From Acetobacteraceae bacterium (GTDB lineage: Bacteria; Pseudomonadota; Alphaproteobacteria; Acetobacterales; Acetobacteraceae): a stretch of DNA of 64,000 nucleotides. The stretch lies in NCBI GenBank assembly GCA_965276665.1, contig OZ255620.1, positions 2,726,291-2,790,290 on the forward strand. The letters run 5' to 3'. The position numbers and the translations under genes are program-made. This document shows, piece after piece, positions 2,955 through 37,902 of this stretch (position 1 is the first letter of the stretch; each line of letters opens with the position of its first letter). The notes beneath the pieces were generated by a model that saw only the letters and a list, made by a program, of their open reading frames with translations, was not told the DNA's origin and did no database searches.

Positions 2955-3805
2955 TTACCCTCCTCCGGCGGATGGCGTTTGCGCCGTTCGTGCCAGGCGT
3001 CCATCAGTTGGAGGACGGCGGCGGCGGTTTCTTCGATGGAGCGCCGGGTGACGTCCACGACCGGCCAGCCGTGCCGGCCGCAAAAGCGGCGTGCCCAGAG
3101 CAGTTCGGTTCGCACCGCTTCCTCGTCGACGTATTCGGCGTTGTCGTGTCGCATGCGGCCGTCTTCGCCGCCGGCGGCGAGCAGGCGGAGGCGGTGGCGG
3201 CGGATTTCGATCAGCGCGGCGGGTTCGAGGGTGAGGCCGATCACCGGGCAGGTCGGGGTCTCGAGCCCGGGCGGGTCGGGCAGGTTCGGCACCAGCGGCA
3301 CGTTGGCCGCCTTCACCCCGCGATTGGCGAGGTAGAAGGAAGTGGGCGTTTTCGAGCTGCGCGAGACCCCGACCAGGATCACGTCCGCGGCGGCGAGGCC
3401 GAGCTGGGCCTGCCCGTCATCATGGGCGAGGACGTAGTGCATGGCGTCGATGCGGCGGAAGTAATCGGCGTCGAGCACGTATTGCTTGCCGGGACGCGAC
3501 TGCGCCTGCTCGCCGATCTGCTCCTGCAGCAGGGTCAGCACGGGGTCGAGCACGTTCACCACCGAGACGCCGAGCCGGGCGCAGGTGGTTTCCATGTCGC
3601 TGCGCAGCGCCTTGTCCACCACGGTCGAGAGCACGGGGCCGGGTTCCGCCTCGATGCCTTCCAGCACGCGATGGAGCTGGAAGCGCGTCCGGATCAGGCT
3701 CCAACGGTGATAGACGATGGAGACGTGCTCGAACTGCGCCACCGTCGCGCGGGCGATGGAATTCAGCGTCTCCCCGGTCGCGTCGGAGACGAGATGCAGG
3801 TTCAT
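2924..3805 (-). CDS. Pyruvate,phosphate dikinase / PEP synthase regulatory protein (DUF299 kinase-phosphorylase family, RP001-like)
   Basis: [15 protein letters not shown]-terminus and [12 protein letters not shown]-loop; start taken at internal ATG (3805) of ORF 2924..3886; C-terminus runs into repeat A. Confidence 0.9.
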
Positions 3806-4154
3806 CCGCTGCGTGGCCGACACCGATCCTCCCGCCGCGAGCTCCGCGGATAGCGAGGATAACGGGGATAAGCGGGCAGGATGCAAGCGACGCGCGGATG
3901 CCGCGCCGGACAGCGGGGAGAAATTGGCCGCCGGGCGTGCGGAGGATCATTCGCCTTCTCACCATCCCGGCGCCGGGACAGATCCGAAAGAGCCGGTGTT
4001 TTCGGCGGGTTGCGCGTCTCTTTTCCTGTGGACGCGTTGGGAAGCAGATGATGCGACTCGTGTACCCCGTGTTCCACACCCCCTTCTGCTTCACCTACAG
4101 TTTCTCTTCTCTGACTTTATGGGTAGTGAAGAGGGGCGGCGTTCAGGCGGGTCG
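3806..4154. other. Candidate chromosomal replication origin (oriC) in the divergent DUF299-hemE intergenic region
   Basis: Synteny with Caulobacter/Rickettsia Cori (hemE / RP001 homologue); several 7-of-9 DnaA-box-like sites (cgaggataa, cggggataa, tgttccaca, ggaggatca); locally AT-richer tract 4090-4125. Confidence 0.45.
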
Positions 4155-5180
4155 ATGACGAAACAGGTGCTGCGGGTGCTGGCGGGCGAGGCGCAATGGC
4201 CGCCGCCGGTCTGGCTGATGCGCCAGGCCGGGCGCTACCTGCCGGAATACCGGGCGATCCGCGCCAAAGCCGGCGGCTTCCTCGAGCTCGCGCTCAATCC
4301 GGTGCTCGCCGCCGAGATCACCCTGCAGCCCGTGCGCCGGTTCGGGATGGACGCCGCGATCCTGTTCAGCGACCTGCCGATCCTGCCCTGGGCGCTCGGC
4401 CAGTCGCTCGATTACGTGGAAGGCGAGGGTCCCGTGCTAGCGCCGGTCCGCGACGAGGCCGGGCTCGCGGCCCTCGACGCCGGGATGGTCGCGGGCCGGG
4501 TGGCGCCAGTGGCCGAGACGGTGCGGCGCGTGCGCGCGGAGCTGCCGGAGGATTGCACGCTGATCGGCTTCGCCGGCGCGCCCTGGACGGTCGCCTGCTA
4601 CATGGTGGAGGGCCGCGGCGCGCGCGAATTCCCCGAAACCCGCCGCCTCGCCTATGCCGAGCCCGACCTGTTCGCCCGGCTGATCCGGCTGGTGACGGAG
4701 GCCACGATCACCTACCTGGCCGCGCAGATCGAGGCCGGCGCCGAGGTGGTGATGCTGTTCGACAGCTGGGCCGGGCTGCTGCCGCCGGCCTTGTTCGACC
4801 GCTTCGTCACCGGGCCGGCGGAAGCGATCACCGCCGCCATCCACGAGCGCTATCCCGGCATTCCGGTGATCGGCTTCCCCCGCCTCGCCGGCACCCAGCT
4901 CGGCCGCTACGCGCTCGACAGCGCGGTCGAGGGCGTCGCCATCGACACCGCCGCCGAGCCGGCCATCGCCGCCGCGCTGCTGCCCGAAGGGGTCGCGCTG
5001 CAAGGCAATCTGGACCCGCTGGCGCTGGTCGCCGGCGGCGAGGAAATGCGCGAACAGGCCGAAGACATCGCTCGCGCCCTGCGCGGCCGGCCTCATATCT
5101 TCAACCTCGGCCACGGCATCCTGCCACACACGCCGCCCGAACATGTGGCCGCCCTGCTCGAAATCGTCCGGAATGCTTGA
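4155..5180 (+). CDS. hemE: Uroporphyrinogen decarboxylase
   Basis: PVWLMRQAGRYLPEY signature near the N-terminus; 341 aa. Confidence 0.95.
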   Translation: MTKQVLRVLAGEAQWPPPVWLMRQAGRYLPEYRAIRAKAGGFLELALNPVLAAEITLQPVRRFGMDAAILFSDLPILPWALGQSLDYVEGEGPVLAPVRDEAGLAALDAGMVAGRVAPVAETVRRVRAELPEDCTLIGFAGAPWTVACYMVEGRGAREFPETRRLAYAEPDLFARLIRLVTEATITYLAAQIEAGAEVVMLFDSWAGLLPPALFDRFVTGPAEAITAAIHERYPGIPVIGFPRLAGTQLGRYALDSAVEGVAIDTAAEPAIAAALLPEGVALQGNLDPLALVAGGEEMREQAEDIARALRGRPHIFNLGHGILPHTPPEHVAALLEIVRNA

Positions 5181-5190
5181 AAGGCTGGAA

Positions 5191-5449
5191 GGCCAGGGGC
5201 GCTGCCCCCACGCATCACTTGGGACCCCGATAAGGGTGGTCACCCTTAAAACCCGGAACTTGGCGGTGCGGGACGTCGGCCATGCCGGCTGTAGTTCGGT
5301 GTTCGATGGCGCTTCGCGCGAAGCGCAATCGCCAACCGGAGCTACATCCGGCATCTCCTGGGACCCGCAACTTCACCGCCAGGCGCGAAGCGCAATCCGG
5401 GTTCTAAGGGCTCCGCCCTTAGCGGGGTCCAGGGGCGGAGCCCCGGGCC
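5191..5449. repeat. Repeat family A, composite copy (modules M1, M2, 2x M3, M4)
   Basis: ccaggggcgctgccccc, taagggtggtcacccttaa, two cgcttcgcgcgaagcgcaatc palindromes, terminal gggttctaagggctccgcccttagcggggtccaggggcggagccccgggcc. Confidence 0.7.
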
Positions 5450-5460
5450 TTCCCACCTGA

Positions 5461-6516
5461 ATGCCAAACCAGAAAACAGCCATCGTCCTGTTCAACCTAG
5501 GCGGCCCGGACAGCCCAGCGGCCGTGGCGCCGTTTCTGCGCAACCTGTTCAGCGATCCCGCGATTTTGCGTGTGCCGTTCTTCGTGCGGCCGTTCCTGGC
5601 CCGGCTGATCGCGAAGCGGCGCACCGTGCCGGCGCAGGCGAATTACGCGATCCTCGGGGGCAAATCGCCGCTGCTCGAGCTGACCGTGGCGCAGGGCGAG
5701 GCGCTGCAGGCGGCTCTCGGGGATGCGAAGGTGCGTTGCTTCGTCGCGATGCGGTACTGGCATCCGTTCAGCCCGGAAGCGGTGGCGCAGGTGAAGGCGT
5801 TCCGGCCGGATCGGGTGCTGCTGCTGCCGCTTTATCCGCAATATTCGACCACCACCACCGGCAGCTCGCTCGAGGATTGGCGCGATGCAGCGGCCCGGGC
5901 GGGGCTGGTCGCCGACGTGACCACGCTCTGCTGCTGGTATGACGATCCGGGGTTCGCCGCCGCCACCGCTGCGGGGGTTGCCCGGGCGCTGGTGGAGGCG
6001 CGCGCCGCCTTGCCGCCGGGTGTGCCGCTCCGGGTGCTGTTCTCCGCCCATGGGCTGCCGGAGAGCATCGTGCGGGCAGGCGATCCGTATCAGGGGCAGA
6101 TCGAGGCGACCGTCGCCGCGGTGCTGGCCGTGCTCGGCGAGCCCGGGCTCGACAGCACCATCTGCTACCAGTCCCGCGTCACGCCCGAACCCTGGCTCGC
6201 TCCGTCGACGGATGCCGAGGTCGAGCGTGCCGGCAAGGACCGGACCGCCGTGCTGGTGGTGCCGATCGCCTTCATCTCCGAGCACTCGGAGACGCTCGTC
6301 GAGCTCGATGTCGAGTACCGCCATCTCGCTGAGAAGCACGGCGTGCCGGCCTATTTCCGCGCGCCGGCGCAGAATGACGAGGCGGGGTTCATCGCCGCCC
6401 TGGCCGCGATCGCGCGCGCCGGCCTCGCTCGCGGCCCCGGGCTGTGCAGCGCGGAAGGCGGCCGGCGCTGTCCGGCGGACCGGACCGGCTGTCCGCACCG
6501 GCTCGGCGACGCATGA
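5461..6516 (+). CDS. hemH: Ferrochelatase
   Basis: 351 aa; AIVLFNLGGPDSPAAVAPFLRNLFSDP N-terminus and LLPLYPQYS motif. Confidence 0.95.
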   Translation: MPNQKTAIVLFNLGGPDSPAAVAPFLRNLFSDPAILRVPFFVRPFLARLIAKRRTVPAQANYAILGGKSPLLELTVAQGEALQAALGDAKVRCFVAMRYWHPFSPEAVAQVKAFRPDRVLLLPLYPQYSTTTTGSSLEDWRDAAARAGLVADVTTLCCWYDDPGFAAATAAGVARALVEARAALPPGVPLRVLFSAHGLPESIVRAGDPYQGQIEATVAAVLAVLGEPGLDSTICYQSRVTPEPWLAPSTDAEVERAGKDRTAVLVVPIAFISEHSETLVELDVEYRHLAEKHGVPAYFRAPAQNDEAGFIAALAAIARAGLARGPGLCSAEGGRRCPADRTGCPHRLGDA

Positions 6517-7190
6517 CATCCTCGCGTTTCGACCTCGTCATCTTCGATTGCGACGGCGTGCTCATCGACAGCGAGATGATCGCGAGCCGCGTCGCCGCCG
6601 CGGCGCTGACCGAGATCGGCTGGCCGATGACGCCGGCGGAGGCGATGGGGCATTTCCTCGGGGTCGCCACGATCGACATGGGGCCGATCATTGCCGCCCG
6701 GCTCGGGGCGGTGCCGGAGGGTTTTCTGGCCGCGCTGTCGCGCCGCACCACCGCGGTGCTGGCCGAGGAGGTCGAGGCGGTGCCCGGCGCGCGGGCGGTG
6801 CTGGAAACCCTGAACGCCATGGGCGTGCGCTGGCGCGTCGCCTCCAATTCAGGGCGCGTCCAGCTCGCCGCAAAATTCGCCCGCGCCGGGCTTTCGGAGC
6901 TCGTCGACGGCCGGGTGCACAGCGCGCAGGACGTGATCGCCCTGGGCGGTCGCGGCAAGCCCGCTCCCGACCTGTTTCTCGCAACCGCCGCCGCGGAGGG
7001 CGTTCCATCCGAAACCTGCCTGGTTCTCGAGGATAGCCTGCCCGGCGTGACGGCGGCCGTGGCGGCCGGGATGCACTGCCTCGGCTTCGCCCCGCATGGC
7101 AGCGGCGACGCGCTGCTCGCCGCCGGCGCCGCCGGGCTGATCCGTGATCTCGCGGACCTGCCGCCCCTGGTCAGGGCCCGCGCGGCATGA
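6513..7190 (+). CDS. HAD-superfamily hydrolase (phosphatase, beta-phosphoglucomutase-like subfamily)
   Basis: DLVIFDCDGVLIDSE motif I; ATGA overlap with the hemH stop; start is an internal ATG of ORF 6444..7190. Confidence 0.85.
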   Translation: MTSSRFDLVIFDCDGVLIDSEMIASRVAAAALTEIGWPMTPAEAMGHFLGVATIDMGPIIAARLGAVPEGFLAALSRRTTAVLAEEVEAVPGARAVLETLNAMGVRWRVASNSGRVQLAAKFARAGLSELVDGRVHSAQDVIALGGRGKPAPDLFLATAAAEGVPSETCLVLEDSLPGVTAAVAAGMHCLGFAPHGSGDALLAAGAAGLIRDLADLPPLVRARAA

Positions 7191-7633
7191 GCCTGCTGCT
7201 GCCGCTCTATCCGTGGATCAAGGCGCTGCACATCGCGTCGATGGTGGCCTGGATGGCGGGGATGTTCTACCTCCCCCGCCTTTTCGTCTATCACTGCCAG
7301 ACGAGGTCCGGGACGGCGGAGAGCGAGCGGTTCAAGGTGATGGAACGCCGGCTGCTGAAACAGATCATCACGCCGGCGATGATCGCCACCTGGTGCTTCG
7401 GCATCCTGCTCGTGCTGACACCCGGCATCATCAGCTGGTCGGAAGGCTGGTGGTACGTGAAGCTGGTGTCGGTGATCGCCCTGACCGGCTTCCAAGGCGC
7501 CCTCTCCCGCTGGCGCCGCGACTTCCTGCACGACCGCAACCGCCGCCCGGAAAGATTCTACCGCGCCGCCAACGAGGTCCCCACCATCCTTATGCTCGTC
7601 ATCATCATCATGGTGATCGTGCGGCCGTTTTGA
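7187..7633 (+). CDS. hemJ: Protoporphyrinogen IX oxidase HemJ (CopD-like UPF0093 membrane protein)
   Basis: 148 aa; WIKALHIASMVAWMAGMFYLPRLFVYH motif; 4-nt overlap with the upstream gene. Confidence 0.85.
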   Translation: MSLLLPLYPWIKALHIASMVAWMAGMFYLPRLFVYHCQTRSGTAESERFKVMERRLLKQIITPAMIATWCFGILLVLTPGIISWSEGWWYVKLVSVIALTGFQGALSRWRRDFLHDRNRRPERFYRAANEVPTILMLVIIIMVIVRPF

Positions 7634-7637
7634 GGAA

Positions 7638-7823
7638 GGCCAGGGGGGCTCTGCCCCCTGGACCCCCGCCAAAGGCCGAGCCTTTGGAATCCATTACGGC
7701 TGTTTGGAGAGGGGTGGGCGAGGGAGTGGTTGGGACCACCGCGTTGCCCACCCCTCTCCAAACAGCCCTAGCGGGTTCTAAGGGCTCCGCCCTTAGCGGG
7801 GTCCAGGGGCAGAGCCCCTGGCC
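7638..7823. repeat. Modular hairpin repeat family A, full copy 2
   Basis: Aligns along its whole length with 2770..2954; also lies between convergent gene ends. Confidence 0.85.
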
Positions 7824-8471
7824 TTACTGCGACGCCCAGACGATGCGGTGAACCCAGGCGACTTCGATGAGGTCGAAGCCGCGGTCGGGGTGGGCGGTGT
7901 TGAGGCTGCGGAGTTCGATGCGGCGGGCGGAGCGGCGGGCGAGTTGTTTGGCCATGACTTCGCCTTTGAGGGTTCGCAGCACGACGCGGTCGCCGCGGCG
8001 GATGGGCGCGCCGGGGGCGACGATGACCATGTCGCCGTCGCGGAACACTGGGTCCATGGAGTCGCCGGAGATTTCGAGGGCGTAGGCGTTGGGGTCGCCG
8101 ATTTCCGGCAGGCTGACTTCGTCCCAGCCGCCGCCGACCGGGTAGCCGCCATCATCGAAGAAGCCGTCGCCGCCGGCCTGGGCCATGCCGATCAGGGGAA
8201 TGCGGCGGGTGGATTGCTGGGGCCGGCTGGCGGGCAGGGTTCGCGCGCCGGTGACGAGGGCGGTGAAGTCGTCGAGCGTGGCGCCGGTGGCGGCGAGCAC
8301 CTTGGCAAGGCTTTCGGTGCTGGGCCAGCGGGCACGGCCGTCGGTGGCGCGGCGTTTCGAGGGGTTGAAGGTGGTGGGGTCGAGCCCGGCCAGCCGGGCG
8401 AGCCCGGAGGCGGAGCGCCCGCTTTCGGCGGCCAGGGTGTCGATCGCGCGCCAGATGTCGTCGTGCTTCAT
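7824..8471 (-). CDS. HTH (XRE/CI-type) + S24 peptidase repressor-like protein
   Basis: C-terminal GDSMDP...GDMVIV...K S24 Ser/Lys catalytic region; N-terminal HTH; start taken at MKHDDIW (8471). Confidence 0.85.
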   Translation of the reverse strand: MKHDDIWRAIDTLAAESGRSASGLARLAGLDPTTFNPSKRRATDGRARWPSTESLAKVLAATGATLDDFTALVTGARTLPASRPQQSTRRIPLIGMAQAGGDGFFDDGGYPVGGGWDEVSLPEIGDPNAYALEISGDSMDPVFRDGDMVIVAPGAPIRRGDRVVLRTLKGEVMAKQLARRSARRIELRSLNTAHPDRGFDLIEVAWVHRIVWASQ

Positions 8472-8536
8472 GGGTCCCGGCAAAGCCGATTCGAATCCGA
8501 TCACATCACGAATCGGCGTGCCTGGCCAGGGGTTTA

Positions 8537-8570
8537 GGAATTAACGCCGAAGTTCGTGGGAATTAGCGCC
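8537..8570. promoter_or_regulatory. Direct repeat GGAATTARCGCC x2 (22-nt period), candidate operator in a divergent promoter
   Basis: ggaattaacgcc at 8537 and ggaattagcgcc at 8559, between the S24 repressor-like gene and the 126-aa gene. Confidence 0.35.
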
Positions 8571-8607
8571 TAGAGGATTGCACGCAAACTCAGTCTCCTG
8601 TGTATTT

Positions 8608-8622
8608 GTTCATCCTTTGTTC
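8608..8622 (+). promoter_or_regulatory. Alphaproteobacterial-type SOS (LexA) box GTTC-N7-GTTC
   Basis: tttGTTCatcctttGTTCa; the 8-nt unit TTTGTTCA occurs twice, 18 nt upstream of the ATG at 8640. Confidence 0.55.
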
Positions 8623-8639
8623 ACACCTGGAGACACGCC

Positions 8640-9020
8640 ATGCATGCCGTTCTCGCCATCTCGCCCCACTATCGGTATCCGGCGGATTTCGCCGGGATGA
8701 CCACCCCGTTCCCAACGGCGGAGGAGGCGTGGCTCTGGACGGCGCAGGCGCTGCGGGCCCGGCGGGACGGGGCCCGTTCGGTCGCTAAGGCGGGTCTGGC
8801 GATACGGCCCTGCGAGCCGGACGATATCGTGCGCTGCCTGGATGGTTTGTTCCGTCGCGGGCGGATCGGTGCCGCGCATGCGACGGCGCTGCATCGCTGG
8901 GGCGAGCGCGGGATGGCGCCGGATGCGCACTGCGCTGCGGAGCAGGCGGATGCCGGCCGCTGGCAGGCGGCGTTGGCCTGGCTAGACTGGGCGTTGCGTG
9001 CGAAGGGGATCGTGGCCTGA
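8640..9020 (+). CDS. Hypothetical protein (126 aa), putative SOS-regulated
   Basis: ORF with ATG; codon usage looks coding; alternative start at MTTPFPT; no family recognised. Confidence 0.55.
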   Translation: MHAVLAISPHYRYPADFAGMTTPFPTAEEAWLWTAQALRARRDGARSVAKAGLAIRPCEPDDIVRCLDGLFRRGRIGAAHATALHRWGERGMAPDAHCAAEQADAGRWQAALAWLDWALRAKGIVA

Positions 9021-9123
9021 TGTCCTTTATAGGAAAAAATTCCTTGACACGACGCCATTATGACAGTTACAACCGAACCGCCAACGGGTGAGCCACGCCT
9101 GTTGGCCTGCCGCCCCTCCGAAA

Positions 9124-9156
9124 GGGCCGCCTCGCAAGGGGCGGCCCTTTTTCTTT
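9124..9156 (+). terminator. Rho-independent terminator
   Basis: gggccgcc-tcgcaagg-ggcggccc stem-loop followed by tttttcttt. Confidence 0.65.
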
Positions 9157-9179
9157 GTCCTCCAGAAAAGAGGCCGCCG

Positions 9180-9413
9180 ATGCCGTTCGTCCTTCGAAAT
9201 CTTTCCGTGCTCGCCTATGCCAACGGATTCACCCTTTGGCACTACAAGGCTCCGGGCGAGCGGCAGGCTTCGGTGATGCGCCGGGGCTATTTCAACGATG
9301 CCGGCGACATGCTGGCGGTGGGCGACATGATCCTGCTCTCTGCCAGCGATGGCGGTCGGCTGGTCTGCATTCTGCCCGACGACACGGCGGTGGTCGTCGA
9401 GCCGGTCGGTTAG
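9180..9413 (+). CDS. Small conserved hypothetical protein (77 aa)
   Basis: ATG at 9180 downstream of the terminator; the longer ORF from 9060 would span the terminator hairpin. Confidence 0.6.
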   Translation: MPFVLRNLSVLAYANGFTLWHYKAPGERQASVMRRGYFNDAGDMLAVGDMILLSASDGGRLVCILPDDTAVVVEPVG

Positions 9414-25933: not shown

Positions 25934-26009
25934 GGGGCCATAGCTCAGTTGGGAGAGCGCCTGAATGGCATTCAGGAGGTCAGGGGTTCGACTCCCCTTG
26001 GCTCCACCA
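25934..26009 (+). tRNA. tRNA-Ala (anticodon GGC), CCA encoded
   Basis: Hand-folded cloverleaf: acceptor GGGGCCA/TGGCTCC with the G3:U70 Ala identity pair, anticodon loop atGGCat, T-arm ggggttcgactcccc. Confidence 0.95.
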
Positions 26010-26065: not shown

Positions 26066-26086
26066 GCATACGTTTTGGCATACGTT
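26066..26086 (+). repeat. Tandem GCATACGTT x2, candidate integrase arm-type site (attL side)
   Basis: gcatacgttttggcatacgtt; near-identical to 37749..37769. Confidence 0.55.
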
Positions 26087-26179
26087 CGTCTCGCTTTTTG
26101 GGGTGCTTGCGAAGTCGATCCCTCGGGGTGGCGAGGCAGTGCTATCCGTTCACCGCGCCCCACCGCATACAACTCCTGC

Positions 26180-26665
26180 ATGTCCCGCACGCGCCCCACC
26201 GTCCCCGCCCCCCCTGCAATCCGCCCCGTTGTCCCGCCGGCCCGCGGTCGGCCGCGCAAGGGCGAGATCGACGCGGACGCCATCCGCGCGCTCGCTGCGC
26301 TCGGGTTGAATGCAACGACCATTGCAGCGCGGCTCGGGTTATCCCGTAGAACGCTGTTCGAACGGCTGGCCGAGGATCCGGTCGCGCGCGCAGCATACGA
26401 TGTGGGGTTGGCCGATCTGGTCGCCACGGCCGGCGCAAAGCTGCGCGAGCTGATCGAGCAGGGCAACGTTGCGGCGGTCATTTTCACGCTGAAAACAAAA
26501 GGGGGCTGGCTTACGCCGCGCGAGGCGTCACCGGCGCTACCGGACGGTGGACCGGTGATCGACGCGAGTGTTGTGTACAGGGGCGGCGAGGCGCAGCGGG
26601 TGCTCCGTGAACGGCATGCGTTGGCGCTCGAGCACGGATTGGATCAGGGTGACGACAACGACTGA
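26180..26665 (+). CDS. HTH protein resembling phage small terminase subunits
   Basis: GRPRKGE..., HTH LNATTIAARLGLSRRTLFERL, and NVAAVIFTLKTKGGW, which resembles the IFWLKNR motif of TerS proteins; start at internal ATG 26180. Confidence 0.5.
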   Translation: MSRTRPTVPAPPAIRPVVPPARGRPRKGEIDADAIRALAALGLNATTIAARLGLSRRTLFERLAEDPVARAAYDVGLADLVATAGAKLRELIEQGNVAAVIFTLKTKGGWLTPREASPALPDGGPVIDASVVYRGGEAQRVLRERHALALEHGLDQGDDND

Positions 26666-27635: not shown

Positions 27636-27845
27636 CTTCTGCTTTCTGGTAAGGCCATCGGCGGGATGCCGCGGCCGCCGGCACTCGCTTGCCTAAAGAC
27701 CGATGTTAAGCCGAAGTTCCTCTCCTAGTGTCGTGGTTCACGGGACGGCGCCTGTTTGTGGATTGTGCTCGTACTTATTTTTAGGGTATTATGTAGTTGA
27801 CAAACACGGCTAGCATGATAGGATTTCGGTTAAGGAGCCAAGCCG

Positions 27846-28766
27846 ATGTCCTTCCTGTCCGTCCCTTACTTCCACGACGAAGCCGCAGCCTACGCGGAGC
27901 TTGAGGCAACGCTGTGGCCGCATGGCCCCGTATGCCCGCGCTGCGGCGGGATGGATCGGATCACGGCCGTTAAGGGTGGCCGCATCGGTCTGTATCGCTG
28001 CGGCCCGTGCAAGCGCCAATTCACGGTCAAGGTCGGCACGGTTTTCGAGTCCAGCCATGTGCCGCTGAACCTGTGGCTGCAAGCGGTCTATCTGATGTGC
28101 AGCAGCAAGAAGGGCATTAGCAGTCACCAGCTCATGCGCATGCTCGACGTGCAATACAAGACGGCTTGGTTCATGACGCATCGCATTCGCGAGGCGATGA
28201 AGGATGGCAGCCTGTCGCCGCTGGGTGGCGCTGGCGTGACGGTCGAAATCGACGAGACCTTCATCGGCACAAAATACAAGAAGCCGGAAGGTGCTCGCGG
28301 CTATGCGCACAAGAACGCGGTTATGACGCTCGTGCAGCGTGGCGGCTCTGCGCGCTCCTTCCATGTTGACGGCACGAAAGCGAGCGATCTGCTTCCGATC
28401 ATCAAGGCGAACGTCGCGCCCGGCACGCACGTGATGACCGATGAGGCCGGTCAGTATGCGCATCTGAATAAGCACTTTGCGGCGCACGATTTCGTCCGCC
28501 ACGGCGCCGAGGAATACGGTCGCGGCCCGATCCACACGAACACCGTGGAGGGGTTCTATTCCGTGTTCAAACGCGGAATGAAGGGTGTGTATCAGCACTG
28601 CGCCGAGAAGCACCTGCACCGCTACATCGCGGAGTTCGATTTCCGGTATAATAACCGTTCCGCGTTCGGCGTGAACGACACTCAGCGCACGGCAAGCGCG
28701 CTGCGCCGTATCGTCGGCAAAAGGCTGACCTATCGAGGGCCTAATTCAGCCAAATCGGCGCAATAG
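27846..28766 (+). CDS. IS1595-family (ISXO2-like) transposase
   Basis: N-terminal zinc ribbon CPRCGG...CGPCKRQF and DDE region VEIDETFIG...MTDE...NTVEGFYS. Confidence 0.85.
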   Translation: MSFLSVPYFHDEAAAYAELEATLWPHGPVCPRCGGMDRITAVKGGRIGLYRCGPCKRQFTVKVGTVFESSHVPLNLWLQAVYLMCSSKKGISSHQLMRMLDVQYKTAWFMTHRIREAMKDGSLSPLGGAGVTVEIDETFIGTKYKKPEGARGYAHKNAVMTLVQRGGSARSFHVDGTKASDLLPIIKANVAPGTHVMTDEAGQYAHLNKHFAAHDFVRHGAEEYGRGPIHTNTVEGFYSVFKRGMKGVYQHCAEKHLHRYIAEFDFRYNNRSAFGVNDTQRTASALRRIVGKRLTYRGPNSAKSAQ

Positions 28767-29035
28767 ATCATCCAAGTGAACGACGATCAGGAAGGCTCTC
28801 TTCCTGACGCGTTCGTGGACATCGTCAACGCATATCTGGCGGCGCCCAAGGTCTGTTCCGTTCGGATGGGGTGGCGCGAGAATCGGCAGCACGCAGACTA
28901 CGCGCGGGCACAGATGAGAATCTTTTGCCCCGCCATGCCGCGTGCGCGCGGGCGTGTCGTACTAATCTCGCACAAATACTACTTCCCGCGGAAGTACAGC
29001 TTCACCTTACTATTACGAACAACGCGCATCGCTAG

Positions 29036-29863
29036 GCTCAGGACCCTTTACGCGGCTTGATGAGGTGTGATTCTGGGGGGTCGGAGGTGGTGCATGTCCG
29101 ACCTTGTTCTGCTGTCGCGGGCGCAGATGCGCCGCATCGAACCGTTCTTTCCCCACTCTCGCGGCTTGCCGCGCGTTGACGACCGACGAGTGATCAGCGG
29201 GATCATCTACGTGATCCGGCACGGCTTGCAGTGGAAGGATGCGCCGCGCGGCTACGGCCCACCCAAGACGCTTTACAACCGGTTCATCCGCTGGAGCCGC
29301 CTCGGCGTGTTCGCCCGTATCTTCGCGGCACTTGCGGGCGCGGCTGACACGCCGGAACGACTAATGATCGACGCCACCCACCTGAAGGCGCACCGGACCG
29401 CCGCGAGCCTGCTCCAAAAGGGGCTCTTTCCCGTTGCCTCGGGCGAACCAAAGGCGGCCTGAACTCCAAGCTGCACGCGGTCTGTGACGGCGAGGGGCGG
29501 CCCCTCCTGCTGCTGCTCACCGAAGGCCAGATGAGTGATCACCGCGGCGCTGCGATGATGCTGCCCGCATTGCCGCCAGCACGCGAACTGCTCGCCGATC
29601 GTGGGTACGACAGCAATCGCTTCCGCGCCGGACTGGCCGCGCGGGGCATAGCCCCGTGCATCCCATCCACCAAAAACCGCAAGGCCCCGCTGCCCTACGA
29701 CAAGCTGCTCTATCGACAGCGCCACCGCATCGAGAACATGTTCGGCCGCCTCAAGGACTGGCGACGTGTGGCGACCCGCTACGACAGATGCGCTCACACC
29801 TTCTTCTCAGCCATCTGCATCGCAGCCGCCGTCACATTCTGGCTCTGATACAGAGTCCTGAGC
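29036..29863 (+). mobile_element. IS5-family (IS427/IS1031-like group) insertion sequence, ~0.83 kb
   Basis: Terminal inverted repeats gctcaggac / gtcctgagc flanked by CTAG on both sides (2-4 bp target duplication); two-frame transposase inside. Confidence 0.85.
29094..29848 (+). CDS. IS5-family transposase, orfA-orfB joined by a probable programmed -1 frameshift near 29414-29421 (ccaaaagg)
   Basis: orfA 29094..29462 (DDRRVISGIIYVIRHGLQWKD); the -1 frame continues KGALSRCLGRTKGGLNSKLHAVCD...ADRGYDS...RHRIENMFGRLKDWRRVATRYD. Confidence 0.85.
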
Positions 29864-30086
29864 CTAGCTTAGATGTTGGGCCTCGAAGGAGCCACAAGAA
29901 TCCTTTAAGCCGCGCGTCTATTCAAAGCACACACTGGTCCTTCTACCCATGCGATACTGTTCTTCCGGATCAAAGAGAGCAAATGCATGCGTTGTGGCTT
30001 GTGGAATTCTTCGAAAGGTGTAACATAGACTTCCGCTCACGGTACGAGCGGCCTGTGCATGACGTGGAGCAACCAGAGTTGCCGCT

Positions 30087-30845
30087 ATGGCCCGGATCGT
30101 AACGCCCCAGGATGTCGAGCACGCCGCGCGCTCGCTTGTTGAGGCGCGGGCGAGCAGTATGGGCATAGAGGTGACTACACCGATCTTGCACGCAAACGGC
30201 GACTTCGTTGAGGTGATCGTTGTTCCCGGCGTTGATGGGTTTGCTGTGCATGACGCAGGGCTCGGTAGCATGCGTCTGTCCGCAGAAGGCATGAGGACGG
30301 GTGGCGATGCCGCAATTCGGATGAGACTTGCGGCAGAGCGGTATGATTGCTTAGTTGAGGGAGGGCGGATCGTTAGGCGTTGCTCCGATGAGGCGGAACT
30401 CGCAGTTTCGATCGCGCTTGTGGCTAATGCGACCAGAACTGTCGGAGACTTTGCGGCCGAGGTTCGGCGCCAGAACGACAGCCAGTTTAGATTCGTACTG
30501 ACGGAGCGCATTCGTGAGATCGCCGGGCCGCGCCTGAGAGAGAACGAGGCCTTCAAGGGCCAAAGCGGGCGCATTTATCGCGTTCCAAATGTCATCCTAG
30601 ACAAACAGCTCTCCCTGCCCCCGGTCTTTGCTGTGCCGGTGGCTTCTCGCAGTTCTGTTCCGTTCCAATTCCGAGAATTGTTTGATCTCAAGGCAGCGTT
30701 CCCCCTTATCAGGAACGATAGCGTTTACAATGATGCTGGGGATTTTCGTCCTGATGAGGACGGGTGGATTCTCGGCCAGGTCGGTGAAGTCACTCCGTTT
30801 TCGGACCTCCCAAAAAGGCTCCCCGAGTTGTTGGAGACGGCATGA
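30087..30845 (+). CDS. Hypothetical two-domain protein (252 aa); layout resembles DUF1828/DUF1829 proteins
   Basis: ORF; start overlaps the upstream restored ORF; N-terminal pattern HANGDFVEVIVV..FAVHDAGLG and C-terminal FKGQSGRIYRVPNVIL recalled from those families (unverified). Confidence 0.65.
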   Translation: MARIVTPQDVEHAARSLVEARASSMGIEVTTPILHANGDFVEVIVVPGVDGFAVHDAGLGSMRLSAEGMRTGGDAAIRMRLAAERYDCLVEGGRIVRRCSDEAELAVSIALVANATRTVGDFAAEVRRQNDSQFRFVLTERIREIAGPRLRENEAFKGQSGRIYRVPNVILDKQLSLPPVFAVPVASRSSVPFQFRELFDLKAAFPLIRNDSVYNDAGDFRPDEDGWILGQVGEVTPFSDLPKRLPELLETA

Positions 30846-31009
30846 CGGATTCGAAGAAGTCGCAACGCGACCGCTTCATCGAAACCGCGCGCCAACTTGG
30901 TGCGGACGAGAACGAAGCCGCGTTCAAGGAGAAGCTGGCGGTGATCGCGCGGCAGAAGCCGAAGGACGCGCCGAAACCGCAGAAACCGCAGGACAAGCGT
31001 GGTGGTTAA
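30842..31009 (+). CDS. Small protein (55 aa), helical N-terminus plus Lys/Pro-rich tail
   Basis: Not in the ORF track (under 60 aa); hand-translated MTDSKKSQRDRFIETARQLGADENEAAFKEKLAVIARQKPKDAPKPQKPQDKRGG; ATGA overlap with the upstream stop. Confidence 0.5.
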   Translation: MTDSKKSQRDRFIETARQLGADENEAAFKEKLAVIARQKPKDAPKPQKPQDKRGG

Positions 31010-31202
31010 GGTCTGGAAAACCGGACAGGGAGACGATTTCACCTGTCCTCATTGTGGAGCGATCTATTCGGTCCACATCACGCGTCTTCCCGTCCGAGAG
31101 CGTGAAACCGAGACATGCGCTGTTTGCAAACGGGTCATGTACGAAGCCAATTCGACGGAGAGCAAGATATTCAGCCTCTCAAAGCGGCCAGACGCACTAT
31201 AG
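30999..31202 (+). CDS. Small zinc-ribbon protein (67 aa)
   Basis: CPHCG ... CAVCK four-Cys motif; GTG start overlaps the preceding sORF by 11 nt. Confidence 0.55.
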   Translation: MVVKVWKTGQGDDFTCPHCGAIYSVHITRLPVRERETETCAVCKRVMYEANSTESKIFSLSKRPDAL

Positions 31203-31271
31203 GACTTCTTGCCTAGGCCGGCGCGTTGTGTTTGCGAAGTGCATAATCTCCTATTTTTAAGGTGCGGAAAA

Positions 31272-31420
31272 GCCCCCCTATGCCCCCCTGTGCACCCTAT
31301 GGTTTTCCGTCCGTGCGCTATACGCAGTGCTTGTGTCCTGTCACCTAAGCGAGGATTCAAATCTTTTTAGATTTTCTAAGGGAAAAAAGCATAGGGGCGC
31401 GTAGGGGGTCATAGGGGGGG
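31272..31420. repeat. Inverted iteron clusters (3 + 3 copies of CCCYRYG-type units) flanking an AT-rich spacer; candidate island replication origin
   Basis: gcccccctatgcccccctgtgcaccctatgg (31272-31302) versus cataggggcgcgtagggggtcatagggggg (31390-31420); spacer contains aaatctttttagattttctaagggaaaaaag. Confidence 0.55.
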
Positions 31421-31437: not shown

Positions 31438-34135
31438 TTACGACCGCGCGAGGAAATACGAAGCGACCGCCCACTTGCCGCCGCCTTTCGATTTTACCAG
31501 CACCCAGCCGCCGGCGTGAGTTCCCACCAACGCCGCGAGCCTCGCCACCAACGCCTGCCTGTTGCTGCCGTCCCAACTAAACTGGACAACGACATCATCG
31601 TGCAGGTCGGCCGCCTTCACGGGGGCAACGCCATGGTGAGCGTGCCAACACGCGAAGGCTTCCGCGATCCGAGCACGCACCGGATCATTGCTCTTTGCTT
31701 CTTGGACTCTGTCGACCGGATCCCGGCAGCCGAGCGCCAGCAGGGGGTCCCGGACCCACTCCGCCCATGCTTCGTATGAGCCAAGCGGCCTGCCCTTTGG
31801 CAGATGCGACTGTCGGCCCCACCTCCAAATCGTCAGAAGCGCCGACAGCAGATCTTCGCGGCGAGGCAGCAGCGATTGCACGAAGTTTGGTGCGAACGGC
31901 CGGTTTTCGGGGTCGGGCGTGCGCGCGTCGAGTGCGCAGTGCACGAAGCGTCTCGCGAGGTCTTCCGACACGCTAAGGCCATTCCCGGTGATGGCGACGA
32001 AGGCCGTCGAGTTGAGGCGCGCCATCTCGCTCCGACCGAGGAGGCGCACCTTCGCGGGGTTTTCAGTGAGCACGGACGCCAGGGCGTCACTGCGCAACTG
32101 CCTGCCATTCACGTTAATCGAGGAAGACCGCAGGCTCAGCCTCTAGCAGGGCGGCGACAATGCGCTTTTCCAGCTCGGCAAGATCGGCGCCGGCCGTAAA
32201 TGCCTGCGGCGATCGTCCGAAGGCGACGGCGCAGATGGCGCGTACGAGCAAGCCTTTCCCAACGGACGACCCTGAAATTTCGGGGGCGTGCACGAGAAAG
32301 CCCGGCGCCAGATCGATGCTCGGCCGCACCACCGCGGTGAGAAGACCGCAGAGCAAGGCGCTCTCGTCCTGGCCAGGGTCCACCCGCACGTCGGTCACGT
32401 CCACACCTAACGTCGCCTCGTGCACGCGCTCGGCATCGGCGACGGCGAACGTGCGGAAGGCATGGCGAATGGAATGGAGCGCGATCAGCGCGTCTCCTTC
32501 GTCTGGCCGATCGGGCACTTGGACCGACACGCCGGACGCGCACCACAATTTGGTTATTGGGTCATAACCGCAGGCGTGTCGAATGGAACCGTCATCTGCC
32601 AGCAGCGGACCGAGGGCGAAGCCGTGCAGAGCGGGGAGGTGCCAGTCGCCGCGCATCGCTAGATATAATTTCGCCACGCGATCCGGCAGCGTCGTGCTCT
32701 TCGGGCCGTCCTTCCCGATCGCCATCGGACGACAAATCCGGTGCGCCTCTATTACGGCGCGGTCGGCCCCAAGATGGTGCACCTCCGGAAAGCCGTCGGC
32801 GTTCCGGACGACAACCACCGGTTTGTCGCGCTCAAACAAGTTGCCGGCCGCGGCCAAAGCATCTCGCGGGCGCTCCGCAGTTTCGGGGAGGTCTCCGTTG
32901 TCGACGATCAAGTCCGGCCGCGCATGCCGCTTGCGCAACTCCGGCGGCATCGGCTCGACCGTGTCGGCGAACTCTTCCTGCGCCTCCGCCATTCGGATTT
33001 CACGAACCGCGCGCAGATAGTGGCCCGTGTCGGCTCCGGCCTCCTCGGCCCACTCGAGGATGTCCGCTGTGCCGACAAAAAAAGGCGGCGCAAGCGAATT
33101 AAAAGTTCGCTCTGCCTCGGTCGAATCGCCGCCGCGGTGATACCTGCCGTCGAACTCGATGTAGAGTTCGCGAGCCATCTCGAGGTGCTGGGGCAGCGCT
33201 GCTTTAAGTGCGCACCCGATCTTTACGTACCCGCTGTCCCGCTCATCAAAACGGCCGTCGTTCTGGATTTGGCGGAACAGGTCGGCGAGCGCGTCAGGAG
33301 CGACAGCAGCAAGGAAGCGCTGATCCGGCGCGCCGTCAGGGAAGGACAGAACGGCTGCGCCACGCACCTTCTCCGTCGCGGTTCGCTGCGGAGTCGAGCG
33401 CTCTACGACTTCGGCAATGCGTGGCGGCACAGTCACTTCCGCTTCGCCTGGTAGTTCGACGAACCGCGCCGGGCAGGGGTCTTCGACGCCGTTCAGGGCT
33501 GGGGCCGCCGTGTAGATCGGCGTCACATCGTTGAAGAGAGAGTGGTCTACGGGGGAGTCAACGAACCACTCTCTCAACGCCTCGCGGCCAAGCGGAACGT
33601 TCATCCAAAACCAGAACCGCAGTCGGGCACCATCCTTGAAACCATGGGAACCGGACGCGCTGACGAAGCATCGCGCCGCGCGGAACTCTGCCGGAAGCAG
33701 CGGTAGAACTACCTTGCCGCATGCTGCCACGTCGGCCCGGTCGGTCCCGGCGGGCAGTGCGACGCCGTCCAGATCTATGGCGACCCAGCGGTGCGGGGCC
33801 GGCTCGAGCGTCGGCGCATTCCCGTCCTTTTGGTGCAAAAGGCGTCTCGCATTCTCGGCTCGCTCCGCGCCGATGAGCTTCCCGCGCACGACCATGACAT
33901 GCCGACGAGACTGCAGCTTCTCGAGCAGGCGCCCGAGATCGTCGAAGCTCTTTAGCGGGCGGGTGGCGATCGTGAAGAAGGTCGCCGAATCGTAGCCCTT
34001 TACGCCTTCGGGCGAGACGCGCTTTGCAAGGACCTTGCCCTCCGTAGAGGCGAGCAGCGTGATGAAGTCGCCGGCCCGCTCCGGCGCCGGCGAAGTCGCG
34101 CAGGGATCGGCAGTTGCTTCGGTCGCGGCGGACAT
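31438..34135 (-). pseudogene. Primase-helicase-like replication protein (P4-alpha/VirE-like P-loop NTPase) split by a frameshift at ~32112
   Basis: ORFs 32114..34213 and 31438..32112 abut; ...EPAVFLD-stop then (I)NVNGRQL in the adjacent frame; deleting one T restores FLDNVNG (Walker B-like); GSSVGKG P-loop upstream. Confidence 0.7.
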
Positions 34136-34139
34136 CGAA

Positions 34140-34382
34140 TCAGCTCTCGTGTCCGGCGAGCAATGCGCGAACCGAAGCCATCTCGACCAGGGCGCGCTTG
34201 CCCACTTTCGCAAATCGGACGCGACCTTCCGCTCGGAGGACGTAGAGGTGGGACCGCGAAAGGCCGAAGTGGCTGCACGCGTCCGGCACGGCCGCGAATT
34301 CAGCGTGCGCGAGCGCCGCGGGATCGGGCTTGCGGCGCTCGCGGCGCGTGCGGTGGTCGGCGGTAGTCTGGGTGGTGGACAT
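34140..34382 (-). CDS. AlpA/excisionase-type HTH transcriptional regulator
   Basis: 80 aa; FGLSRSHLYVLRAEGRVRFAKVGKRALV motif; directly upstream of the replication gene. Confidence 0.8.
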   Translation of the reverse strand: MSTTQTTADHRTRRERRKPDPAALAHAEFAAVPDACSHFGLSRSHLYVLRAEGRVRFAKVGKRALVEMASVRALLAGHES

Positions 34383-35097: not shown

Positions 35098-35334
35098 TTA
35101 CGCGGTCGGCAAGGTGGCGAAGTACGTGGCGAATGCAGTTGCGTCGACCAGCACGCGTCGCCCGATCCGGCGAGCGAGCAGACGACCGGCGGCGATTTCG
35201 CGGCGGATAGATTTTGGTGAGACGCCGGCGCGCCGGGCGGCAGCGGTGACCGAAATGCCGAGTGCGTCAGGCGCGGCGGTAAGCGATGGTGCGGCGGTCG
35301 CGGGCATGGGGCCTCGCAGGGCTAGAGGGGACAT
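35098..35334 (-). CDS. Excisionase-family HTH DNA-binding protein
   Basis: ISVTAAARRAGVSPKSIRREIAAGRLLARRIGRRVLV pattern typical of the excisionase/MerR-like HTH_17 family. Confidence 0.7.
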   Translation of the reverse strand: MSPLALRGPMPATAAPSLTAAPDALGISVTAAARRAGVSPKSIRREIAAGRLLARRIGRRVLVDATAFATYFATLPTA

Positions 35335-36490: not shown

Positions 36491-37735
36491 TTAGCTTACC
36501 TCGCGGCGGATCGTCGTGACGTTGTCGGCGGCGGCAGCGTCTGGCGCTGGACGCCTGCAGAACACGGCCCATTCGGCCATGAGTCGGCGGCGCCGCTCGA
36601 ACAAGTCGGATCGCCGGTAGGCCGCCTCCACCTGATCGGCGATGGTGTGCGCGAGGGCCGCTTCAGCCACTTCGCGCGAGTAGGCGGTGGTGTCGGCGAC
36701 CCAATCGCGAAAGGTGCTGCGGAAACCATGCACGGTTATGCTGTCGCGCTCCATCCGGCGAAGCACTGCCGACATCGCCATGTCACTGAAGGGCTTCCCG
36801 GCGCGCGTGCTCGGGAAGATCCAATCACCGCGCTTCATGTCGCGTAGTGGGGCCACGGCGCGCAGCACCTCGCACGCTGCGTCGGACAGCGGGACACGAT
36901 GCCCGATGCCGGCCTTCATGCGCTCGCCGGGCACGGTCCATACGGCCTTGACGAAGTCGATTTCGCCCCAGGTCGCGCCGATCACCTCTCCGGTCCTGGC
37001 AGCGGTCAGCACGGTGAACTGCAGGGCCATTGCAGCAATCCCGCCGTGCTTCCGGAGCTCGGCCATAAACGCGCCAACGTCCGCCCAGGGCAGGGCCGGA
37101 TGATGAGCCACGCGGACTAGGCGGGAAGGGCGGGCCAATAAGTTGGACAAATGACCGCGCCACCGCGCGGGGTTTTCGCCGTCACGCCATCCGCGCGCCT
37201 TCGCGAAGTCCAAGACGAGCTCGATACGGCCGCGCAGCCGCGAGGCGGTTTCCGTCTTCGTCGCCCACATCGGTTCCAGGACGCTCGTGACATCTCCGGT
37301 GGTGATCGCGGCAACCGCCTTGTCGCCGAACACGGCGTTGGCGAGGGCGAGTGTCTGGCGCCACTGGTAGCGGTGTTTGGCATTGCGCCAGCTCGGCTCG
37401 TGGGCCGCAATGTATAAGTCGGCCACCTCGCGAAAAGTCCTCCCGATCTTCGCACCAGCCGCTGCCTCGCCCTCTTGGGCGCGGCGCCGCTCGAGCGGGT
37501 CAATGCCTTGCCGCAGAAGTTTCCGGCACTCGCCTGCCGCCTCCCTGGCCTCTGCCAATGAGAGTTGCTCGGTGCTTCCCAGACCCATGAGGCGCGCCTT
37601 GCCGTCGATGACGAACCGGAAGAGCCAAGACTTCGCCTCGGGCCCGCGCACCTGCAGCAGGAGATTGCCGCCGTCACTGTATCGGCCTGGCTTCGCCAGC
37701 TTCTCGACCTTAAGCGCGGTGAGCTTCGTGGCCAT
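36491..37735 (-). CDS. Tyrosine recombinase, P4-type integrase (DUF4102 arm-binding N-terminus)
   Basis: LTALKVEKLAKPGRYSDGGNLLLQV N-terminus; catalytic region TAARTGE...HGFRSTFRDW...LAH...Y. Confidence 0.95.
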   Translation of the reverse strand: MATKLTALKVEKLAKPGRYSDGGNLLLQVRGPEAKSWLFRFVIDGKARLMGLGSTEQLSLAEAREAAGECRKLLRQGIDPLERRRAQEGEAAAGAKIGRTFREVADLYIAAHEPSWRNAKHRYQWRQTLALANAVFGDKAVAAITTGDVTSVLEPMWATKTETASRLRGRIELVLDFAKARGWRDGENPARWRGHLSNLLARPSRLVRVAHHPALPWADVGAFMAELRKHGGIAAMALQFTVLTAARTGEVIGATWGEIDFVKAVWTVPGERMKAGIGHRVPLSDAACEVLRAVAPLRDMKRGDWIFPSTRAGKPFSDMAMSAVLRRMERDSITVHGFRSTFRDWVADTTAYSREVAEAALAHTIADQVEAAYRRSDLFERRRRLMAEWAVFCRRPAPDAAAADNVTTIRREVS

Positions 37736-37888: not shown

Positions 37889-37902
37889 CCTTGGCTCCAC
37901 CA
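37889..37902 (+). repeat. attR core: duplicate of the tRNA-Ala 3' end
   Basis: ccttggctccacca is identical to 25996..26009. Confidence 0.8.

Follow-up and report, generated by a model that had tools for sequence, protein, structure and literature searches.

Among insertion sequences (IS), the passenger-carrying groups of the ISNwi1+/ISNha5 type were reportedly described as transporter IS (tIS) by Siguier, Gagnevin and Chandler in 2009. The transporter-IS concept is cited for the IS1595 family in PMC11891212, and the excerpt of that source cited here names a transcription regulator as the passenger type of ISNha5. A second point of reference is PDC-M24, a two-gene cassette (FAM_00129>>FAM_00065) among 145 untested candidates, all of which were proposed from their embedding in BREX, DISARM or type I restriction-modification (RM) loci (Payne et al., bioRxiv 10.1101/2024.01.29.577857); a literature search found no paper on PDC-M24. 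Here we describe a locus at which both meet. It lies in a stretch of 64,000 nucleotides from an Acetobacteraceae bacterium (assembly GCA_965276665.1, contig OZ255620.1), called the window below, and comprises four tightly packed open reading frames (ORFs) on the + strand, ORF1 to ORF4, whose products we call components A to D. We read them as the passenger operon of an IS1595-family transporter IS in a tRNA-Ala-linked island, with an A-B core that is a distant relative of PDC-M24 and has a role in genetic conflict. Taken as a whole, this reading appears fairly probable to us. What is new is that two known kinds occur combined: a distant PDC-M24-type pair rides on an IS1595 transporter IS.

The anatomy, a passenger operon in an IS1595-family transporter IS, can be stated with high confidence. 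Element boundaries were found by comparing the ends of several related elements, and the transposase and all four ORFs proved to be enclosed by the inverted repeats (IRs) and the target duplication of one single IS1595-family element at 27784-31251. Its length is 3,468 bp here and 2,640 bp without a nested IS5-family insertion; a second copy lies at another locus, L058. The features of the element are as follows.

27776-27783, no strand: left 8-bp target-site duplication TATTTTTA, an identical 8-mer abutting both element ends.
27784-27807, + strand: left inverted repeat (IRL) GGGTATTATGTAGTTGACAAACAC, matching the reverse complement of 31228-31251 at 18/24 positions; identity to L058 begins here.
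27797-27824, + strand: putative sigma-70-like promoter TTGACA-16-TAGGAT, overlapping IRL upstream of the transposase gene; 10/12 consensus positions, extended TG.
27846-28766, + strand: IS1595-family (ISXO2-like) DDE transposase, 306 aa, intact, assigned by its Pfam domains.
28776-29035, + strand: 5' part of ORF1, codons 1-86 and part of codon 87, joining in frame to 29868-30102.
29032-29035 and 29864-29867: CTAG duplication flanking the nested IS.
29036-29863, + strand: nested IS5-family IS of 828 bp that splits ORF1, with GGCTCAGGAC inverted repeats; the empty site is found in L058.
29067-29462 and 29531-29848: the two transposase ORFs of the nested IS (DUF4096, 6.5e-22; DDE_Tnp_1_2, 8e-13).
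29868-30102, + strand: 3' part of ORF1 including the stop codon; in nearly every locus tblastn finds a homologue immediately upstream of the ORF2 homologue.
30087-30845, + strand: ORF2, 252 aa, with a DUF1828-like N-domain, a 48-residue helix and an alpha/beta C-domain; overlaps ORF1 by 16 nt.
30842-31009, + strand: ORF3 (component C), 55 aa, charged and helical, motif RFxEtAxxLGxDExEAxFxxKL; ATGA junction with ORF2 at 30842-30845.
30999-31202, + strand: ORF4, 67-aa CxxC...CxxC zinc ribbon in a variable fourth slot; overlaps ORF3 by 11 nt.
31228-31251, - strand: right inverted repeat (IRR), reverse complement GGAGATTATGCACTTCGCAAACAC; identity to L058 ends here.
31252-31259, no strand: right 8-bp target-site duplication TATTTTTA, the same 8-mer as the left copy.

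An 8-bp target duplication is usual for the IS1595 family. Related elements have homologous, better matched IRs (L001 25/25, L002 21/24, L003 21/22, L014 and L033 (22/22)) and 8-bp duplications of their own, namely TTTAAAAA in L014, TTTTAAAT in L001, GAAACTTT in L002 and AAAGGAAG in L003, as well as one in L033; in L040 and L058 such a duplication was looked for and none was found. The transposase combines the Pfam domain DDE_Tnp_IS1595 (PF12762, 2.3e-36) with an N-terminal Zn_ribbon_IS1595 (PF12760, 5e-11). Thus the window element shares with known transporter IS a zinc-ribbon DDE transposase, short IRs, an 8-bp duplication and additional genes located between one end and the transposase, whereas its A-B-C set stands in place of the transcription regulator named for ISNha5 in the cited excerpt. 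All five genes lie on one strand; ORF1 starts after a 9-nt gap behind the transposase gene, and each of the three later junctions is an overlap. The four ORFs and the 16-nt, ATGA and 11-nt junctions listed in an earlier note on this DNA are all present. The promoter hexamers are likewise kept in L013 and L014, and no terminator-like site was found on the + strand inside the element. The predicted promoter and the lack of an internal terminator-like site suggest a single transposase-A-B-C-D transcript that would start in IRL.

The L058 copy carries transposase, ORF1, ORF2, ORF3 and ORF4 without the nested IS, in unrelated, prophage-like flanks. It is 100% identical to the window over 27784-29035 and 99.93% identical over 29864-31252, and the identity starts and stops at the IRs. 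Since the whole unit is found in other flanks and ends at the IRs, the passenger genes appear to move with the transposase. The L058 junction is exactly a single CTAG. In silico excision of the nested IS from the window restores an in-frame ORF1 of 164 aa, and the IS-free L058 encodes exactly this protein, which proves the restored reading frame. Because ORF1 is split, the A-B module of the window is probably inactive. The near-identical intact copy (L058/P0220) suggests recent mobility of the element, and a functional module may be present at another site, in this genome or in that of a close relative. As a side observation, L001 contains at 4224-4969 an IS5-family element that is ~72% identical in DNA sequence to the nested IS of the window and is inserted in the L001 transposase gene; the IS5-family and IS1595 transporter IS types have thus collided at least twice (window ORF1 and L001 transposase).

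Which of the genes belong together was judged from 43 distinct ORF2 loci drawn from genome, metagenome and plasmid collections. In each of the long contigs inspected first, an IS1595-family transposase gene preceded ORF2 by ~500 bp in the same orientation, and tblastn places an ORF1 homologue of 34-75% identity, usually uncalled, in the gap between both. The layout transposase-ORF1-ORF2(-ORF3) recurs in at least 16 loci besides that of the window, including relatives with their own repeats and duplications. A transposase gene is found upstream and co-directional in 13 of the 43 loci (12 by script, L050 by annotation) and downstream and convergent in three (L033, L053 and L028; L020 shows the same arrangement by tblastn). 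Eleven loci lack a transposase within flanks of at least 1.3 kb on both sides, and 16 are indeterminate since their contigs are too short. Within the window's own subfamily, all 11 determinable loci are transposase-linked. Around the transposase-less pairs L008, L009, L011 and L034 no inverted repeats were found; therefore these are not obviously decayed IS copies.

ORF1 is found immediately upstream of ORF2 almost everywhere, and A and B show correlated pairwise identities (rho 0.59). Transposase and B divergence are not congruent (rho -0.35), which is a weak test with six complete elements. Compared with the 78%-identical L013 element, the ratio of nonsynonymous to synonymous substitution rates (dN/dS) is 0.14 for the transposase, 0.12 for ORF1, 0.035 for ORF2 and 0.18 for ORF3 (range 0.16-0.34), and the substitutions in ORF1 to ORF3 are mostly at third positions, so these ORFs are more than chance. 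ORF1-ORF2 behaves as a co-evolving core module under purifying selection, and its partnership with the transposase seems to have been reshuffled. The four-gene unit of the earlier note accordingly gives way to a conserved core of ORF1 and ORF2, with ORF3 as frequent third gene and ORF4 as variable slot.

ORF3 homologues directly follow ORF2 in L001, L002, L005, L013, L018, L025, L040, L046, L050 and L054, and thus even in the very divergent element of the Sulfitobacter plasmid pSD118. So far ORF3 has been found only beside IS-borne A-B pairs; a tblastn search of plasmids gave one weak Roseomonas match. Its role is possibly regulatory. ORF4 in contrast has no counterpart in related elements except the identical L058 copy. 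In L001 and L054 the fourth slot holds a small transmembrane protein, in L005 a lipoprotein-like ORF. ORF4 is thus an exchangeable, lineage-specific extra. ORF4 scores 20.8 bits against the MJ0042-type zinc finger model TIGR02098 (cut-off 20.9) and has several sub-threshold zinc-ribbon matches in Pfam. Its sole detectable relative outside L058 (37% identical, E value 7e-6) lies at 4001-4186 of L049, a plasmid of Nostoc sp. TCL26-01, in a part without annotation that has hypothetical genes on one side and an IS5 transposase on the other. Extra cargo of another kind was observed in L003 (IRs 4497-8208), where an N6_N4 DNA methyltransferase gene (1.4e-44) and a 71-aa ORF occupy 7009-8135 on the opposite strand at the right-hand end.

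The relationship to PDC-M24 comes from profile matches, which we judged by E value and not by PADLOC's own score cut-offs. Window ORF2 matches PADLOC PDC-M24B with an E value of 2.6e-4, its residues 21-240 aligning to positions 19-245 of the 256-position model. The same model is matched by 47 of the 48 clusters of the ORF2 family (best 7.4e-16), and a second B model by 35 of them. The only PADLOC matches of the A family are to PDC-M24A: 5 of its 22 members match PDLC04536 (best 0.0042), and one matches PDLC04533 (5.3e-4). In L051 both halves come together, A matching M24A (0.0013) and B matching M24B. These matches would make the A-B pair a distant homologue of the candidate system. Common to both are the order A then B on the same strand, the sizes of ~150 aa and ~250 aa and the full-length match of the B family to PDC-M24B; the window pair differs as a very distant branch that is IS-borne and accompanied by a third conserved gene, ORF3. 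Where the earlier note had spoken of an undescribed system, this holds insofar as no characterised family was matched, be it of defence, toxin-antitoxin or metabolic type, but the core pair is distantly related to a candidate that PADLOC already lists.

The ORF2 family comprises 48 clusters, mostly of alphaproteobacterial metagenome sequences, and an exhaustive profile search relates 833 representative proteins to ORF2 at E<=1e-3, nearly all of ~250 aa. The AlphaFold2 model of ORF2, with a predicted local distance difference test (pLDDT) score of 94.7, consists of an alpha/beta N-domain, the 48-residue helix and an alpha/beta C-domain. The N-domain is matched by Pfam DUF1828 in 27 of the 48 family members, in some above the gathering score, and two distant relatives pass the cut-off (P0121 28.8 bits, P0165 22.6 bits), whereas the window's own protein stays below it (E 0.16, 12.7 bits, cut-off 22 bits). 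DUF1829 was matched neither by window ORF2 nor by the 48 family members nor by 10 distant relatives, and its literature yielded one mention, of an unrelated HipA-associated protein. The two-domain layout that the earlier note compared with DUF1828/DUF1829 proteins therefore stands for the N-terminal domain only. Window ORF2 also weakly matches phrog_1960 over its full length. With tblastn no match to ORF2 was found among plasmids, and P0165 gave none among phages.

For component A, the family is smaller, with 22 clusters against 48 for ORF2, and ORF1-type genes are widely missed or mis-called by gene callers. The predicted model of ORF1 (pLDDT 87) shows a helix-capped beta structure whose fold matches an uncharacterised phage protein (E 4.4e-5, template modelling (TM) score 0.63). 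H96 and H109 are invariant in both alignments of the family; H66 and D89 are invariant in one and conserved to at least 90% in the other. Window ORF1 and ORF3 had no match in Pfam, NCBIfam, PHROGs or PADLOC. The best Pfam match of the A family is DUF6978 (2 of 22 members, E 0.003), on which the papers found were not relevant. The likeness of B to DUF1828 and of few A members to DUF6978 thus adds no function, as both domains are uncharacterised. Regarding gene calls, L050 (Sulfitobacter guttiformis pSD118) has at 3456-4004 a 182-aa ORF1-like gene between the IS1595 transposase and the ORF2 homologue. This call rests on position and common motifs and is below the ORF1 profile threshold; RefSeq has an opposite-strand 88-aa ORF at this position.

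Outside IS elements the A-B pair is found in telling surroundings. L057 has it in a prophage-type region, where a Peptidase_S24 cI-like repressor gene on the same strand immediately precedes it. In L052 the pair follows ~0.5 kb downstream of a cI-like repressor gene, again on the same strand, although its upstream ORF is taken as A by position only, without an ORF1 profile match. In L056 the immediate neighbours of the pair are a GAAD/GASH/DO-GTPase/GAP1 system and genes of phage or Mu-like type. The arrangement in L057 and L052 resembles rexA-rexB of phage lambda, a two-gene module that sits alongside the repressor gene and is transcribed with it. This likeness is positional only: A and B have no sequence or fold similarity to RexA and RexB, and the models of A and B contain no predicted membrane segment. 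Together, the three non-IS contexts (cI-like repressor, GTPase conflict system and PDC-M24 embedding) favour a conflict role. The fold match of ORF1 to a phage protein and the weak phrog_1960 match of ORF2 point the same way. That A-B is, more specifically, a phage-exclusion or abortive-infection-like module riding on mobile elements is an idea drawn from context to which we give slightly less than an even chance; the possible anti-phage role raised in the earlier note may be called a reasonable guess.

One might envision the following mechanism. The A-B module, serving phage exclusion or conflict between mobile elements, would hitch-hike on such elements; the IS promoter would drive it here, and in prophages it would be expressed together with the cI-like repressor gene. 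B might sense an infection cue with its DUF1828-like N-domain, the C-domain being the effector part within a dimer that the long helix would form. A, beta-rich and with the conserved residues H66, D89, H96 and H109, could be the partner enzyme or the regulator of B. In a wider version, one IS1595-family lineage would carry the PDC-M24-like A-B pair plus C as a near-standard conflict or immunity operon, which would either shield the host, and with it the IS, against phages or make the cell dependent on the IS. Some of the candidates, PDC-M24 included, would then be found inside BREX or RM loci as a result of IS insertion; we regard this version as rather unlikely.

Several points weigh against a conflict role. 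The defence label is, in our analysis, guilt by association twice over, as PDC-M24 is itself only a candidate. IS insertion could itself produce embedding in defence loci, and because an IS can place passengers inside any locus, the embedding argument for PDC-M24 is weakened. Of the window proteins, ORF2 has a weak match to the PADLOC models and ORF1 none (no PDC-M24A match at E<=1), and the A-B module is disrupted in the window. Profile searches of Protein Data Bank (PDB) sequences with the A and B families yielded no sequence relative, and a Foldseek search of the PDB with the ORF1 model gave nothing informative (best E 0.16). The ORF2 model, in the same kind of search, gave weak nuclease-type matches (VC1899, BbvCI, Can2, PspGI and NucS; E 5e-3 to 0.1, TM 0.2-0.35). 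A PD-(D/E)xK nuclease was thus considered for the C-domain and rejected, as the fold resemblance is weak and the family alignment has no D...(D/E)xK motif in the predicted strands; the second and third of them carry the invariant residues S160, Y164, R165, F181 and R188 and no conserved acidic-x-Lys. Nuclease activity of ORF2 is therefore not supported. Finally, two pattern-limited scans of IMG/VR, one with the B alignment and one with the prophage B of L057, returned no confirmed relatives, which is a weak negative.

Among the alternatives, the most durable is that A-B acts as a toxin-antitoxin-like addiction module that stabilises its carrier element and has no phage role. Two overlapping, co-evolving genes that move between IS elements, prophages and islands and have no enzymatic family assignment would fit such a module. 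However, known type II pairs differ from A and B in size (here 164 and 252 aa) and in both folds, and no toxin or antitoxin family in Pfam, NCBIfam or PADLOC was matched by ORF1 to ORF4. In the window element ORF1 is split and ORF2 intact; with A as the antitoxin this would kill the cell, unless an intact copy (L058/P0220) supplies A in trans. In addition, prophage exclusion genes are typically placed right behind cI-like repressors. We thus consider pure addiction unlikely, noting that addiction and abortive-infection roles are not mutually exclusive.

Somewhat less likely still is that A-B(-C) provides accessory functions of the IS, such as transposition regulation, target choice or transposition immunity, instead of host defence. 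Precedents exist, since IstB of IS21 and the extra ORFs of IS66 serve their own elements. The genes form one operon with the transposase through coupled junctions, the linkage in the window's subfamily is complete, the layout is still found in the Sulfitobacter plasmid element, although the B of the latter reaches just 54 bits with the family profile, ORF3 keeps to IS-borne pairs, and purifying selection is equal to or stronger than that on the transposase. Yet members of the same A-B family (200-264 bits) occur without transposase or IRs in prophage immunity regions, beside the GTPase conflict system and between ychF and rplU. Moreover, the transposase may be upstream and co-directional or downstream and convergent, co-divergence of transposase and B was not seen among the six complete elements, and most IS1595-family members transpose without such genes. 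The earlier note's reading, an independent four-gene system as variable cargo of a satellite-like island, would agree with the lowered GC content that the note had also remarked on (here 0.58-0.62 for 27-32 kb and 0.66-0.75 for the flanking DNA) and with a tRNA-Ala island holding a P4-type integrase, an excisionase-like helix-turn-helix (HTH) protein and a primase-like gene, but it is already contradicted and highly improbable, as the IRs and target duplication enclose the upstream 306-aa transposase together with the four ORFs, the identical unit is found at another locus with unrelated flanks, and ORF4 is not conserved alongside the other three.

The conflict role we prefer would have consequences beyond this locus. 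Larger Tn7-like transposons are known to spread immune modules; if A-B truly excludes phages, an element as small as a 2.6-kb insertion sequence does so too, and PDC-M24 would gain its first functional footing, along with an intact, cloneable operon of 1.6 kb. If A-B-C instead serves the IS, a set of accessory proteins would be added to a family for which the transposase alone was believed to suffice, and embedding-based defence prediction would be warned that it can pick up IS passengers. In either case the significance rests on the link between IS and defence and not on the damaged copy of the window.

The transporter IS sits inside an integrative island of ~11.9 kb, limited by tRNA-Ala(GGC) at 25934-26009 and a 14-nt repeat of its 3' end, CCTTGGCTCCACCA, at 37889-37902. 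The island contains the following mobility-related genes.

34140-34382 and 35098-35334: two HTH_17 excisionase-like genes.
36491-37735: P4-type integrase gene.

A primase/helicase-like gene at 31438-34213 (- strand) is split into ORFs of 699 aa and 224 aa in different frames. The two cover adjacent segments of phrog_29234 (profile positions 241-615 and 621-787), which points to a pseudogene with a frameshift or to an error in sequencing. The label 'TerS-like' of a 196-aa gene at 26075-26665 is backed by one PHROG match (phrog_309, 8.6e-6) that is confined to the helix-turn-helix region, and in Pfam the same gene matches generic HTH domains only, below threshold. Away from the window, the transposase-less A-B pair of L011 occupies 5489-6753 between ychF and rplU in a Hyphomicrobium metagenome-assembled genome, and the transporter IS of L003 lies within ~100 bp of ychF (8302-9399), which may be coincidence or a common target neighbourhood with L011. 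In the window, the short interval between the right end of the IS and the primase-like gene, downstream of the latter, contains a C-rich/G-rich inverted repeat of 25 nt (31273-31297 and 31395-31419) with 84% complementarity.

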